The position numbers were made by a program, and so were the translations under genes. This document shows positions 24,676-28,054 of a stretch of 64,000 nucleotides of DNA, one piece after another (position 1 is the stretch's first letter; each line of letters starts with the position of its first letter). Under the pieces are notes generated by a model. The model did no database searches and was not told the origin of the DNA. It saw only the letters and a list, made by a program, of their open reading frames with translations. Origin of the DNA: Clostridia bacterium (GTDB lineage: Bacteria > Bacillota > Clostridia > UBA1212 > UBA1255); the NCBI GenBank assembly GCA_017620915.1, contig JAFZSK010000051.1, positions 24,215-88,214 on the forward strand, read 5' to 3'.

Positions 24676-24717
24676 GGAATTAGGCTATTATCCTGTGTAG
24701 AATTAGGGAATTGGCGG
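24667..24717. repeat. GAATTAGG-family iteron cluster (solitary arm)
   Basis: gagaattagggaattagg ... tagaattagggaattggcgg: three or four units of the same family as 30085 and 50133. It marks the left edge of the low-GC islet. Confidence 0.8.
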
Positions 24718-25097
24718 AAGGGGCGTCCTTGTCTAAAGAAATTGCCATTTTGCTGTTTTTTATAGACGCGGATTCCTTCTTTTTTCGTTAGACGCGCCAG
24801 TCTGAGCCGAAACATCTTAAAATAGAGGTCAAAACTGCCTGGTTTTAACACAAAGCCGCTTTGCCTAAGGACTTGATCCGCTTGGAAAACCAATTCGCCT
24901 GATGGAATCGTGAATTTCAAGGTGATTTTGGATAAAAAAGCGCCTGACTCGGGATATTATCCATTCAATGACAATTTGACTACTTTGCTCGTCTTAAAAA
25001 TCAGGGAAAATGGGCATTTTTATAGACGGAGACGGCGCCCAGCAAAAAAGCTCGTGTCGAAATGGCTCGTGAAAAAAGTGCGGTTTGAAAAAAGTGC

Positions 25098-25126
25098 TTG
25101 CATTGTCCGAAACGCTGTGGTATAAT
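25098..25126 (+). promoter_or_regulatory. Sigma-70 promoter of the initiator-like tRNA
   Basis: TTGCAT-17 nt-TATAAT, preceded by an A-tract (aaaaaagtgcttg). The tRNA starts 41 nt after the -10. Confidence 0.6.
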
Positions 25127-25166
25127 ACGCTTCGCCGCTCGAAAAACGGCGGCAACAAAAACATAT

Positions 25167-25249
25167 CGCGGGGTAGAGCAGCTGGTAGCTCGTCGGGCTC
25201 ATAACCCGGAGGTCGTTGGTTCAAATCCTTCCCCCGCAATAAAAAAATA
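25167..25249 (+). tRNA. Initiator-like tRNA-Met (anticodon CAT) with atypical T-stem
   Basis: CGCGGGG acceptor with a C1-A72 mismatch. Three G:C pairs in the anticodon stem (TCGGG-CTCATAA-CCCGG). T-loop TTCAAAT. The T-stem GTTGG/CCTTC contains two T-T mismatches, so possible pseudogene. Confidence 0.6.
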
Positions 25250-25280
25250 ACAGGTCATGAGGCCTGTTATTTTTTATTGT
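25250..25280 (+). terminator. Intrinsic terminator after the tRNA
   Basis: aataacagg-tcatga-ggcctgttatt followed by ttttatt. Confidence 0.65.
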
Positions 25281-25393
25281 GAGGCAGCAGAAAACCGGAA
25301 AAGTGCAACCTTTTTCTTATTCACGTCGCCTTATATTATGCAGCTATAAGAGGGCTGCAATACAAATAACTTAAACGGAGACGAGGTCACTTT

Positions 25394-26050
25394 ATGGAAT
25401 CAAAGAGATACATTGACAAGTATAATACGCCAAGAGTATTTCAAATCATTACCACGATCGGATTTGTTATTCTTGTTGGACTAATGCTTAGCGTAACTGT
25501 AATTGTTACTTCTGTCACGACGTATAATCCTAAAACCTGGAGTATCAATACCTGGGAACATACTCGCGACACTGTTTTCGAAATGTTTGAAGCAAAAGTG
25601 GACTACACAGGATTTCTTTTAGGAGCGGTCGCTTTAATTGCGTCTATAGCAGGTATTGTTTTTATATGGTTAAACAGACCAAAACTGTCCGCAATTTGTG
25701 CGGGAATACTTTTAATTATTATGTTTTTGTCTCTGTTAGTTATTGGCGATCTGGGTATGGAGGATTACTTTGACTCATGGAACAATTACGATCGTCTTGA
25801 GGTTAGAGTGCAAGAAACATACTATTTACTTTGGGGATTGACCATCATATTAATCGTGTTCTCTATCATTTCCATTAAGACCACCAAAGAAGGACCGAGA
25901 CCGCCTAAGCTTGTTAGAATCGTCGAAAGCCCTGCGGCTACTCAACCCTCTGCAGCTGATGAACTTAAAAAATACAAAGAATTATTAGATTCGGGAGTTA
26001 TTACTCAAGAAGAATTCCAAGAAAAGAAAAAACAGCTATTAAATCTGTGA
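25394..26050 (+). CDS. Membrane protein with C-terminal SHOCT domain
   Basis: 218 aa, four TM helices. The C-terminus ELKKYKELLDSGVITQEEFQEKKKQLL is a canonical SHOCT motif. Low-GC codon usage. Confidence 0.6.
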   Translation: MESKRYIDKYNTPRVFQIITTIGFVILVGLMLSVTVIVTSVTTYNPKTWSINTWEHTRDTVFEMFEAKVDYTGFLLGAVALIASIAGIVFIWLNRPKLSAICAGILLIIMFLSLLVIGDLGMEDYFDSWNNYDRLEVRVQETYYLLWGLTIILIVFSIISIKTTKEGPRPPKLVRIVESPAATQPSAADELKKYKELLDSGVITQEEFQEKKKQLLNL

Positions 26051-26094
26051 ACGGCTATTTAGTGCTATCCGATCTTTTAGTATACACTCCGCGA

Positions 26095-26132
26095 AAAAGA
26101 GGCATCCTAACAGCAGGGTGCCTCCTTTTTCG
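26095..26132 (+). terminator. Intrinsic terminator
   Basis: gaggcatcc-taacagcaggg-tgcctc followed by ctttttcg. Confidence 0.5.
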
Positions 26133-26229
26133 CCGTGGAATAATCGACATTCAGAAGACTTTATGATATAATGAACAGGTTAAAACGTTACACCGAGGTT
26201 CGAACATAACGGGCAGAGGAGAAACAAAA

Positions 26230-27978
26230 ATGGGCGCGTATCTATTTGAGGACTTTGCGAAAGATCTTTTAAAAATCAAAAGTTTCAAGTATTTTGTTGA
26301 CCGGAGTCTGGATGACCCGGATCACGAGGCCGATGATCCGGAAGGAGAACTGAATAAGTGGATGACTGATGAAGAGCATGAAGGGCAAGAGTTTCTCTCC
26401 TATTCTTTGCCTTTTGTGCTAGCCTATAAGCTAGGTCGGAAGGAGCTGCTTGCGTATCTGAATCGCTATTTTGACCAGGCTTTGGAATGGTATCAGTATT
26501 GGGAGTACAGGCATAGCGGCTTCGGCAGCGGGTTCCACTGTTTTAATATCTTTAACTGTTACATCCTCGCTTTGTGTTCCAGATACTATGCCAGCATCAA
26601 GGAAACGAAGAAAGCGACCTTGGCCTGCTTTTTTTTCATGTGCTGTCTTTCGCACCATGGTGATCCGTCAGAAGAATACTATGAAGAAGACGAAGACCCG
26701 CCGGAAAATTATGAAGAACCGTACGATCTGGTCGATCTGTATGACGCTTTTGAGCCTTATTTCCATGCAATTAAGGAGTTTATCGGCCCTGACTGGCAGG
26801 CGGTCCACCCTTCGGTCACCTGGAATATCGGGAGATATTATTTGGCGAAAAACAATTACCGTAAGGCAAGAGAGTTCTTCTCCCTGGGGGCTTCGATCGA
26901 TTATGATGGACGTCAATCCGTGGAGCCTTTTAATGCCGTTGGCAAAAATCAGTACGAATACGGATTGACCTACTTGAAAGGCCTGGGCGTCAAAGTCAAC
27001 CCCAAAATGGCGCTGAAATATTTCGAAATGGCAGCCGAAAACGCCGGAGAACCGACAATTCCCATAATTCAGGATATGCGAAACGACGGCCTGCTGCCGG
27101 TTGAATGTGATCCGGTCATCGACAACCTGAACGGGTATGGCCGTTGTAACATTCACAATATTTACGATGACGTTTATTACAAAGAGCTTAACGAAGATCA
27201 GACCGAAAAACTGAAATTTTATGCTGATTATTATTTAACACATGAAGGTTTGCTTGATTTTGGCAGCCTTGATTTTTTGCGTGATGTTTACCGGTACCGT
27301 CTGCACGACTATGGAAAAATCAGTGAAGTGGAAGAGCGGATGGATCTGTTGATAGAATCGACCCCGGTCGAGGACAGAAGCAGCGAGATGGATGATTTTT
27401 ACATTTCCCGCTGGAAGGAAAAATGGAAAAAAACCGTCGAAAAGCCGACAACGAATTCCGGTGCGATCCCAAAGGATCCGAAACCCGGCGACACTTTCTT
27501 CTACGGTACAATCAACAACGAGCCTTTGGAATGGAAGGTTTTAGAGGTCAACGATTGCGGAGAGATATTTGTCATTACCACGAAGATTATCCTCAAAATG
27601 TGTTACGACGGCATTTTTGATTGGCTGAATACAGATTTCGTGGAAAACGTCTTCACGGACGATGAGAAAAAACATATCGTTGCCTACGATGATAATCCTT
27701 TTCGGAGAAATGCTCCTCTTTATGTTTATCTTCCAAACCGCAGTCAGATAGAAGAACTGGATGATCCCAATCAACCTGTTGAAGAAACGGATCTGGCAAG
27801 ATCATTGAGCAGCGACACATCATTCTACACCATCGACGGAAAATATATTAAACCCGGTGAAGGTCCTTGTTTTTATAAGGCAACGTATCATATCCGCGGG
27901 ATCCGTCCGGCAATGGATCTTCGCTTAAGGCTTCGGAAAAAGAGGTCGGATAAAGAACGGCGCGACAAAACAGATTGA
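26230..27978 (+). CDS. Hypothetical acidic 582-aa protein with Sel1-like repeat and C-terminal DUF-like domain
   Basis: Low-GC ORF. A Sel1/TPR-like block (GLTYLKGLGVKVNPKMALKYFEMAAENA). The C-terminal FFYGTINNEPLEWKVLEVND motif recurs in uncharacterised Firmicutes proteins. No catalytic motif was recognised. Confidence 0.5.
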   Translation: MGAYLFEDFAKDLLKIKSFKYFVDRSLDDPDHEADDPEGELNKWMTDEEHEGQEFLSYSLPFVLAYKLGRKELLAYLNRYFDQALEWYQYWEYRHSGFGSGFHCFNIFNCYILALCSRYYASIKETKKATLACFFFMCCLSHHGDPSEEYYEEDEDPPENYEEPYDLVDLYDAFEPYFHAIKEFIGPDWQAVHPSVTWNIGRYYLAKNNYRKAREFFSLGASIDYDGRQSVEPFNAVGKNQYEYGLTYLKGLGVKVNPKMALKYFEMAAENAGEPTIPIIQDMRNDGLLPVECDPVIDNLNGYGRCNIHNIYDDVYYKELNEDQTEKLKFYADYYLTHEGLLDFGSLDFLRDVYRYRLHDYGKISEVEERMDLLIESTPVEDRSSEMDDFYISRWKEKWKKTVEKPTTNSGAIPKDPKPGDTFFYGTINNEPLEWKVLEVNDCGEIFVITTKIILKMCYDGIFDWLNTDFVENVFTDDEKKHIVAYDDNPFRRNAPLYVYLPNRSQIEELDDPNQPVEETDLARSLSSDTSFYTIDGKYIKPGEGPCFYKATYHIRGIRPAMDLRLRLRKKRSDKERRDKTD

Positions 27979-28054
27979 CTTGATCCGTAATTATGAGTAC
28001 AATCGCAACATCTGAGAGGCGGCCGATACGCGCCGCGGCGGTGGAGGAATCTGA

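Follow-up and report, generated by a model that had tools for sequence, protein, structure and literature searches.

The stretch of DNA considered here is a window of 64,000 nucleotides from contig JAFZSK010000051.1 of an uncultured rumen Clostridia species, and the element in question is a low-GC segment located in it between the gene of a 709-amino acid (aa) DUF6259 protein and a GNAT gene. The segment harbors an initiator tRNA gene, a gene for a small membrane protein with a SHOCT domain, and a gene for a 582-aa acidic protein (Table 1); RNA genes other than the tRNA were not found between positions 24000 and 29000. The guanine-plus-cytosine (GC) fraction falls from 0.65-0.68 (23200-24600) to 0.37-0.47 (24600-28000) and rises again to 0.56-0.59 in the GNAT gene. 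At third codon positions (GC3), values of 0.35 for the SHOCT gene and 0.51 for the 582-aa gene are found, compared with 0.74-0.82 for the SufC, SufBD, DUF6259, GNAT, and DegV genes. Both measures bear out the low-GC islet that had been described at this place in an earlier note made from the nucleotide sequence, and the dissimilar GC3 of the two islet genes would fit separate origins.

Table 1. Features of the low-GC segment and its tRNA gene (positions within the 64-kb window)
Feature	Position	Strand	Characteristics
Strain-specific low-GC insertion, 442 bp	24645..25086		between 709-aa DUF6259 gene and tRNA promoter; missing in relatives L092 and L007
tRNA promoter	25098..25126	+	TTGCAT (25098), 17 nt, TGgTATAAT (-10 at 25121-25126)
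Initiator tRNA (tRNA-fMet, CAU), predicted	25166..25240	+	ARAGORN; Rfam RF00005, 57.4 bits, E 7e-11
tRNA terminator, hairpin and T-run	25242..25275	+	-17.9 kcal/mol, z -6.1
218-aa SHOCT membrane protein, monocistronic	25394..26050	+	Pfam SHOCT, DUF4064-like; four segments by hydropathy
Terminator after SHOCT gene	26091..26133	+	-27.7 kcal/mol, z -7.3
Promoter of 582-aa gene	26144..26172	+	TCGACA, 17 nt, TATAAT with TG; 11/12 consensus positions
582-aa acidic cytoplasmic protein	26230..27978	+	Sel1 solenoid, residues 1-400; divergent DUF6273 (indirect assignment), residues ~404-570

Relatives of the locus were found by searching with the 709-aa protein in species-representative genomes and with the GNAT protein in metagenome contigs. 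Two of them are of the same species, namely L092, a 70.5-kb rumen metagenome contig that is ~98% identical to window positions 17427-35397, and L007, the metagenome-assembled genome RUG12823 ("uncultured Ruminococcus sp."), with ~94.5% nucleotide identity. Both diverge from the window exactly in the low-GC interval. The comparison of related strains, as had been proposed in the earlier note, shows in this way that the segment is not uniformly conserved; it is foreign in composition and accessory. In L092 and L007, the tRNA gene is followed by a terminator (GAGGCATCCT.ACAGGGTGCCTC-T7), by ~160 GC-rich bases and, ~210 bp past the tRNA, by a 40-bp direct repeat of the tRNA 3′ half, which is regarded here as the typical trace left when an element integrates into a tRNA gene. 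With this attachment site (att)-like repeat, the linkage of the islet to a tRNA gene is upheld.

Past the repeat, L092 carries a gene for a 198-aa S-adenosylmethionine (SAM)-methyltransferase (Methyltransf_25, E 7e-15; repeat and gene together at 7657-8403), followed by the SHOCT gene. The methyltransferase gene, for which weak matches to PADLOC mad2 and to the PHROG annotation "tRNA methyltransferase" were obtained, is not found in the window. From position 8463 onward L092 corresponds to the window from 25243 onward, and the hairpin at 25242-25275 follows the methyltransferase gene there; since L092 rejoins the window at 25243, ~1.0 kb of L092 is missing from the window. In L007, unrelated sequence with a different open reading frame (ORF) follows the repeat up to the end of the contig. 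The SHOCT gene of L092 is intact and 97% identical, while its 582-aa gene has lost 26258-27528 (1,271 bp, with CTTTG microhomology) and is frameshifted, a 38-aa ORF being left. An assembly artefact is ruled out, because the independent contig L092 repeats both the junction between the SHOCT cassette and the 582-aa gene and that between the 582-aa gene and the GNAT gene. In the 3′ part of the 582-aa gene shared by the window and L092, 13 of the 16 nucleotide differences fall within 84 nt (27550-27633), immediately rightward of the junction that the deletion left in L092; this cluster could reflect a local recombination event or a pseudogene under relaxed constraint. In relatives at a greater distance, homologues of the DUF6259 protein (48-58% identity) and of the GNAT protein (30-70%) are linked neither mutually nor to tRNA-fMet; in L131, an initiator tRNA is found ~0.6 kb from a GNAT homologue of 43% identity.

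Mobile-element debris is present at the same tRNA in another genome. In L158 (IMGVR_UViG_3300007714_000299, 1-5915), an identical tRNA-fMet has other neighbours, among them an upstream DMP19-like gene, and is flanked on its 3′ side by a C-terminal Phage_integrase fragment (E 1e-14), rve and Mutator-family transposase fragments, an AAA_14-DUF4143 ATPase, and a helix-turn-helix protein.

The tRNA reads CGCGGGG...GAGC/GCUC...UCGGGCUCAUAACCCGG...CCCCGCA-A. Every initiator element looked for in it is present, and judged by these identity elements it is predicted to be a bacterial initiator. With canonical bacterial tRNA-fMet it shares the CAU anticodon, C1xA72, A11:U24, and the three G-C pairs that close the anticodon stem (G29-31:C39-41); it differs in two U·U mismatches of the T stem and in the lack of an encoded CCA, and the "variant initiator tRNA(CAT)" of the earlier note is thereby specified. 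The T stem consists of G49-C65, U50·U64, U51·U63, G52-C62, and G53-C61, the mismatches being flagged as "vv" by cmscan, and the minimum-free-energy fold of the tRNA does not give a standard T arm. Other tRNAs in related loci encode CCA. An identical tRNA is found in L092, L007, and L158, and the 5′ 46 nt are identical to those of the canonical initiator of L131. The U·U mismatches are kept in the three strains, in L158, and in the tRNA-fMet of the phage L159, which identifies them as a lineage trait and not as damage; the U·U variant would be the normal initiator of this lineage. L159 (IMGVR_UViG_3300025689_000001) is a phage-like contig of 122.7 kb with a tRNA array at 5794-6550, including two tRNAs with a CTA anticodon (amber suppressors). 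The anticodon loop of its initiator-type tRNA is interrupted by ~680 bp of intervening sequence, which encodes a PD-(D/E)XK endonuclease (PF11645, E 4e-20); the 3′ half of this split tRNA equals that of the tRNA in the window, U·U T stem included, and has CCA in addition.

The tRNA had been considered strongly promoted and terminated. The terminator is strong indeed and the extended -10 element is perfect, but the -35 element is poor; as it matches the consensus at 3/6 positions, the promoter was not listed by a consensus scan. What had to be given up is the assignment of the tRNA to the content of the islet. The block containing promoter and tRNA (25087-25247) is 96-97% identical in L007 and L092, the tRNA being conserved together with its promoter in all three strains, and the identical tRNA occurs elsewhere in L158. 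The tRNA and its promoter are resident chromosome and constitute the anchor of a hotspot.

To the left of this anchor, the 442-bp insertion is substituted in L092 and L007 by 73 and 55 unrelated bases, respectively. In the window it takes the place of the last ~9 codons and the stop codon of the DUF6259 gene, and because the breakpoint lies inside these final codons, the C terminus of the 709-aa protein differs between strains (...LEPLGIRLFPLEN in the window, 24645-24675; ...LEPLASKLIAMLMAK in L007, 6252-6288; ...LEALAAKRIAM in L092, 7220-7243). The left 73 bp of the insertion (24645-24717) are direct GAATTAGG-type repeat arms. That the left edge of the islet coincides with a GAATTAGG iteron arm is correct insofar as the arms are real and a repeat arm is the end of the strain-specific insertion; the breakpoint, as given by the strain comparison, is 24645 and not 24676. 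The motif GAATTAGGGAATT has 12 matches in the window versus 1.1 expected, corresponding to a ~10-fold over-representation, and the arms of the insertion resemble repeats at 30097-30190, 38687-38753, and 50137-50200, the similarity to the arms at 50157 being close (87% over 39 nt). Compound GAATTAGG elements at 30097-30287 and 50137-50310 are composed of several direct AT-rich arms, a ~90-nt GC-rich core, and an inverted arm; of these parts, the insertion at 24645 has the arms, with neither the core nor the inverted arm. An 82-aa ORF on its minus strand (24672-24920) is unsupported, there being no match in Pfam, PHROG, PADLOC, or NCBIfam and no tblastx match in any fetched locus, and it was set aside as noncoding. 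In the remainder of the insertion, no coding or RNA content is detectable.

To the right of the tRNA, the protein predicted as a four-transmembrane (TM) SHOCT protein with its own terminator is confirmed as such. The SHOCT domain (PF09851) scores 43.1 bits at a cut-off of 27 (E 3e-11; residues 189-216), hydropathy gives four hydrophobic segments, and the membrane region is weakly DUF4064-like (E 1.6e-5). Beyond SHOCT and DUF4064, no informative match was obtained in Pfam, PADLOC, PHROG, and NCBIfam; the C-terminus matches several PHROG families. As in other SHOCT-domain proteins, the 28-residue domain lies at the very C-terminal end of a small membrane protein, which in this case is otherwise undistinctive. 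SHOCT has no established function, and a test of the hypothesis that it serves in oligomerisation gave no support for it (Eberhardt et al. 2013, PMC3581485). There are ~23 clusters of full-length homologues with 33-46% identity. In the two contexts of such homologues that were inspected, the gene lies beside ornithine carbamoyltransferase and OAD_beta genes or beside another SHOCT paralogue, and in neither is there a Sel1 or DUF6273 neighbour. The protein would be an independent small membrane protein. The terminator behind the gene is a diverged copy of the native tRNA terminator (L092 7449-7495, L007 6460-6506; blastn 83% over 47 nt), which suggests that the SHOCT cassette was inserted between the tRNA and its terminator.

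The 582-aa protein has a pI of 4.8, zero hydrophobic segments, and no signal peptide, and it is, as had been assumed, a large acidic cytoplasmic protein with a Sel1-like repeat (SLR). Residues 1-400 are all-alpha in the structure model, for which a structure search finds only tetratricopeptide repeat (TPR)/Sel1 solenoids, and these weakly. In the single sequence, Sel1 (PF08238) reaches 30.3 bits versus a cut-off of 30.7; six out of six family members match it (best E 3e-13), and around residues 225-290 the family profile finds Sel1 proteins of solved structure (E 2e-35). Two or three repeats are recognisable at residues ~195-290. The family has in addition a conserved N-terminal helical region of 190 residues and an invariant DYDGRQS loop. 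An HD nuclease in the N-terminal region was considered and rejected: Cas3-HD scores 18 bits against a curated cut-off of 43 (that of the equivalent NCBIfam model), and this match, being far below the cut-off and without conserved His or Asp at the respective positions of a 12-sequence family alignment, was dismissed as a chance match. In agreement with the earlier note, no catalytic domain was found in either islet protein by Pfam, PADLOC, NCBIfam, and structure search. As the 582-aa protein does not have an enzymatic domain, a protein-binding scaffold is the default role, and the protein would be a nonenzymatic cytoplasmic binding, adaptor, or sensor protein. The gene has homologues in five clusters among 5.8 billion proteins, at 65, 63, and ~37% identity, to which a profile search added ~5 clusters, giving ~ten full-length clusters among 1.8 billion representatives.

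The conserved FFYGTINNEPLEWKVL C-terminal module of the earlier note does exist, and by an indirect route it can be assigned as a divergent, C-type-lectin-like DUF6273 domain. A profile of the C-terminal 170 residues retrieves 1,468 proteins, many of them with tandem copies, and PF19789 was found in 45 of 46 sampled profile matches (best E 7e-120). An alignment over the full DUF6273 is obtained for the C-terminal 165 residues, including GDxFxFG, EPIEW.VL, WLN..F...AF..EE, Y.YLPS..E, and G[IV]RPA[ML]. The AlphaFold model of the domain, made with this alignment, has a pLDDT of 92.5 and a pTM of 0.88, and its best two structural matches in BFVD are phage proteins named "DUF6273 domain-containing proteins" (E ~1e-3, probability 1.0, TM 0.51-0.53). 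Profile searches, which had been recommended for this protein, have thus yielded both Sel1 and DUF6273.

DUF6273 is described as a C-type-lectin-like domain that carries, at its C-terminal end, the variable region of targets of diversity-generating retroelements (DGRs) in gut phages (PMC10743442; PMC11792537; bioRxiv 10.1101/2024.10.15.618418). The stretch that varies most between the three closest homologues (20% identical in all three) comprises residues 526-555 of the 582-aa protein; it immediately precedes GIRPAMD and corresponds to the place where DGR variable regions map in DUF6273 (PMC11792537; bioRxiv 10.1101/2024.10.15.618418). A DGR target itself was rejected, since a second copy of 27400-27980, and hence a template repeat, is absent from the 64 kb; a reverse transcriptase is also absent from the gene lists of the homologue loci. 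The domain is like the DUF6273 DGR targets of phages ("tentaclins", Mtd-like) in its whole-domain alignment, profile retrieval, fold matches, and fast-evolving stretch before G[IV]RPA. It is unlike them in being part of a cytoplasmic protein and in its fusion to a Sel1 solenoid instead of Ig-like, zinc-ribbon, or TM modules, as well as in its subthreshold Pfam score and the absence of WWLRS, template repeat, reverse transcriptase, and viral relatives. With the Sel1 adaptors Hcp of Helicobacter, LpnE and LceB of Legionella, and SLR of Oxalobacter, the protein has in common the Sel1 repeats in an alpha-solenoid and the lack of an enzymatic domain; in contrast to these, it has two or three repeats, is devoid of a signal peptide (many bacterial SLR proteins being secreted), and is extended by the N-terminal helical region, the DYDGRQS loop, and the C-terminal DUF6273 domain. 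The lectin-like domain would bind a ligand via hypervariable loops just before the GIRPAMD motif, while the Sel1 solenoid would hold a protein partner.

The SHOCT gene is closed off by a strong terminator, and the 582-aa gene that follows has a promoter of its own, so the two genes are separate transcription units. With separate promoters and terminators and with different GC3, the idea of a compact module made of a membrane protein and its soluble partner does not stand. When co-occurrence was checked, as the earlier note had advised, the pair was found in none of seven contexts of the 582-aa family, all of which are without a SHOCT neighbour, and in neither of the two inspected contexts of SHOCT homologues. 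An anti-phage system was not supported either: in PADLOC-DB 2.0, the library used for the defence search, no model was matched by the SHOCT protein, and the 582-aa protein gave only the chance-level Cas3-HD match mentioned above.

Summarizing, the segment is most probably a strain-variable mosaic that has been built up and is eroding beside the initiator tRNA gene of the species, and not one functional unit. According to this scenario, the 3′ side of the tRNA would act as a hotspot of integration and recombination, as suggested by the att-like 40-bp duplicate in the relatives and by the duplicated tRNA terminator. At least three foreign pieces, each of them separately acquired and dispensable, would have gathered around the tRNA, namely, the 442-bp insertion starting with a dispersed GAATTAGG-type repeat, the monocistronic gene of the 4-TM SHOCT membrane protein, and the monocistronic gene of the nonenzymatic Sel1-DUF6273 protein. 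As no integrase is left, the pieces would be remnants that are kept or lost through ordinary deletion.

tRNA-linked islands and islets are elements that integrate at the 3′ end of tRNA genes, where they leave behind a direct repeat of this end. The segment resembles them in its position directly 3′ of a tRNA gene, its foreign composition, its strain-variable presence, and the differing cargo at one site, as well as in the 40-bp repeat of the tRNA 3′ half in the two relatives and the tyrosine-integrase fragment at the same tRNA in L158. It differs from them in that the islet has neither integrase nor excisionase, the window has no second att copy, and some of the foreign DNA, namely 24645-25086, is located on the 5′ side of the tRNA; the content of the segment resembles accreted remnants shaped by deletions of ~1.0 and 1.27 kb rather than to an excisable element.

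Several points weigh against the mosaic as outlined or against single parts of it. The window contains no second copy of the tRNA 3′ end, and none of the ORFs in 24645-28050 encodes an integrase, so that site-specific integration is deduced from the relatives. An empty site, in which the tRNA would be followed directly by the GNAT gene, was never seen in the relatives compared, synteny being gone in the more distant ones. The strain comparison includes two same-species relatives only, one of which, L007, has a contig that stops 480 bp after the repeat, and the right boundary of the segment is drawn from composition alone. The 582-aa gene is intact, with a good promoter, a ribosome binding site, and conserved motifs, and may well be functional and selected in the window strain. 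Concerning the C-terminal domain, the assignment to DUF6273 is an indirect one: in the direct Pfam search, PF19789 scores 12.2 bits, below the cut-off of 23.5 (E 0.16), the WWLRS motif of the DUF6273 alignment is missing from the 582-aa family, and a Foldseek search of the domain against the PDB returned zero matches.

Further hints as to the 582-aa protein come from the seven contexts of its family, some of which may share ancestry. Certain genes recur within a few positions of the homologues, in varying order and orientation. A fusion of CTP_transf_like and PARG_cat_microb of ~525 aa is found in five of the seven (L001, L004, L087, L089, and L151, where the gene is cut and only the CTP_transf_like start is present) and a DUF6939-like protein of 240-275 aa in four (L004, L087, L089, L152). 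A metallophosphoesterase (Metallophos; L001, L004, L151) and an LRR_5 protein (L004, L151, L152) occur three times each; NADAR (L004, L087) and ATPase_2/DUF234 (L005, L152) are each present in 2/7. The gene sets are located at L001 8237-11728, L004 6662-12863, L087 4697-14890, L089 442-4017, L151 2413-6925, and L152 2925-7288; the cluster in L001 begins right after a tRNA-Lys gene, and L004 has TIR-DUF6273 and PASTA-DUF6273 genes 8-10 kb from the gene set. DUF6939 is not mentioned in the literature searched. PARG domains remove ADP-ribose. NADAR enzymes reverse the ADP-ribosylation of guanine in DNA by DarT1 (PMC11543638, PMC11125620). The neighbours would point to a conflict context centered on ADP-ribose and nicotinamide adenine dinucleotide (NAD), and in other genomes the neighbouring ADP-ribose/NAD-processing genes would probably supply the set of partners of the protein. 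None of the partner genes (CTP_transf_like/PARG, DUF6939-like, Metallophos, LRR_5, NADAR) was found in the 64-kb window by tblastn; the 582-aa copy is therefore an orphan here. A tentative and rather unlikely proposal is that the family provides, inside the cell, the subunit for ligand recognition or the adaptor in an undescribed conflict cluster that processes ADP-ribose/NAD; the window copy would then be an orphan sensor between acquisition and loss.

A related explanation holds that the 582-aa protein, by itself, is a working part of an ADP-ribose/NAD conflict system, in defence or counter-defence, acting in trans with partners encoded elsewhere in the genome; the importance of the islet would then lie in this gene. 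The recurrence of the linkage to CTP_transf_like/PARG, DUF6939-like, Metallophos, and NADAR genes despite rearranged gene order, the reaction catalyzed by NADAR, the fusion of other DUF6273 proteins to TIR domains, and the intact gene with its own promoter are in its favor. It is made doubtful by the absence of all partner genes from the window, by the loss of the gene in the 98%-identical L092, by the lack of a match in the PADLOC defence library, and by the small set of contexts from which the linkage is derived.

Still less probable is an origin of the cargo from a prophage or integrative element with moron-type genes; in that event, the DUF6273 protein would once have served a phage in receptor binding or as a DGR target. 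Most of what is known of DUF6273 comes from DGR targets of phages (PMC10743442, PMC11792537), DUF6273 proteins of phages rank first among the structural matches, the C-termini of SHOCT proteins match PHROG families, and att-like repeats in the relatives as well as integrase debris in L158 would fit. However, in 2.9 million viral contigs, scanned with the SHOCT protein and with an alignment of the 582-aa family, relatives of the two proteins were not found, template repeat and reverse transcriptase are missing, the 582-aa protein has neither a signal peptide nor features of a structural protein, its 400-aa Sel1 solenoid is unlike phage targets, and phage structural genes are not found nearby.

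A two-component accessory system, for instance an anti-phage one with the 582-aa protein as soluble sensor and the SHOCT protein as membrane effector, is the least credible explanation and already largely refuted by the absent co-occurrence: the two genes are adjacent, on the same strand, and in a foreign-composition islet at a tRNA, neither protein has a housekeeping annotation, and homologues of the 582-aa protein are found in islands rich in conflict-type genes (TIR-DUF6273, HipA, nSTAND3, SNF2, NADAR), but the genes are split by terminator and promoter, differ in GC3, and are not paired in any of the other contexts inspected, the SHOCT homologues are located among housekeeping genes, L092 has kept the one gene intact and the other frameshifted, and a significant PADLOC match is missing.

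Some observations on repeats may be added. A perfect 15-nt inverted repeat, CGGACGGATCCCGCG / CGCGGGATCCGTCCG, at 24554-24568 and 27895-27909 brackets nearly the whole islet, its arms lying in the 3′ ends of the DUF6259 and 582-aa genes, respectively; the number of such pairs to be expected by chance in 3.9 kb is estimated at ~0.01. The compound GAATTAGG element at 30097-30287 is located upstream of a PadR-family gene at 30366 and is reversed in L092 (12097-12262; blastn 76% over 195 nt, minus strand). An invertible segment could explain this, as could an element resembling a miniature inverted-repeat transposable element (MITE) that was re-inserted in the reverse direction. At 38687-38753, three GAATTAGG-type arms are found immediately upstream of a gene start, and the full arms-core-inverted-arm element at 50137-50310 is followed by a TATAAT-containing stretch.

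Returning to the mosaic, the segment is an ordinary decaying tRNA-linked islet, and accessory DNA that piles up and decays beside a tRNA gene is a textbook-type feature; the mosaic nature of the segment strikes one candidate "defence system" from the list. The initiator of the lineage would tolerate U·U mismatches at two positions of its T stem, a point of relevance to what initiators require of this stem, and the same T arm is copied by a large phage. The cytoplasmic Sel1-DUF6273 architecture takes the lectin fold of DGR targets past its known range, which covers tail and surface proteins of phages. Some potential for discovery, as a modest lead, lies only in the Sel1-DUF6273 family with its ADP-ribose neighbourhood, whose linkage to PARG, NADAR, and nucleotidyltransferase genes offers a testable lead into ADP-ribose conflict systems. 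If the proposal were true, nucleotidyltransferase-PARG fusions, a DUF6939-like protein, a metallophosphoesterase, and NADAR would constitute an undescribed cluster, and a lectin-like domain that is normally diversified on phage tails would have been re-used inside the cell as a sensor.

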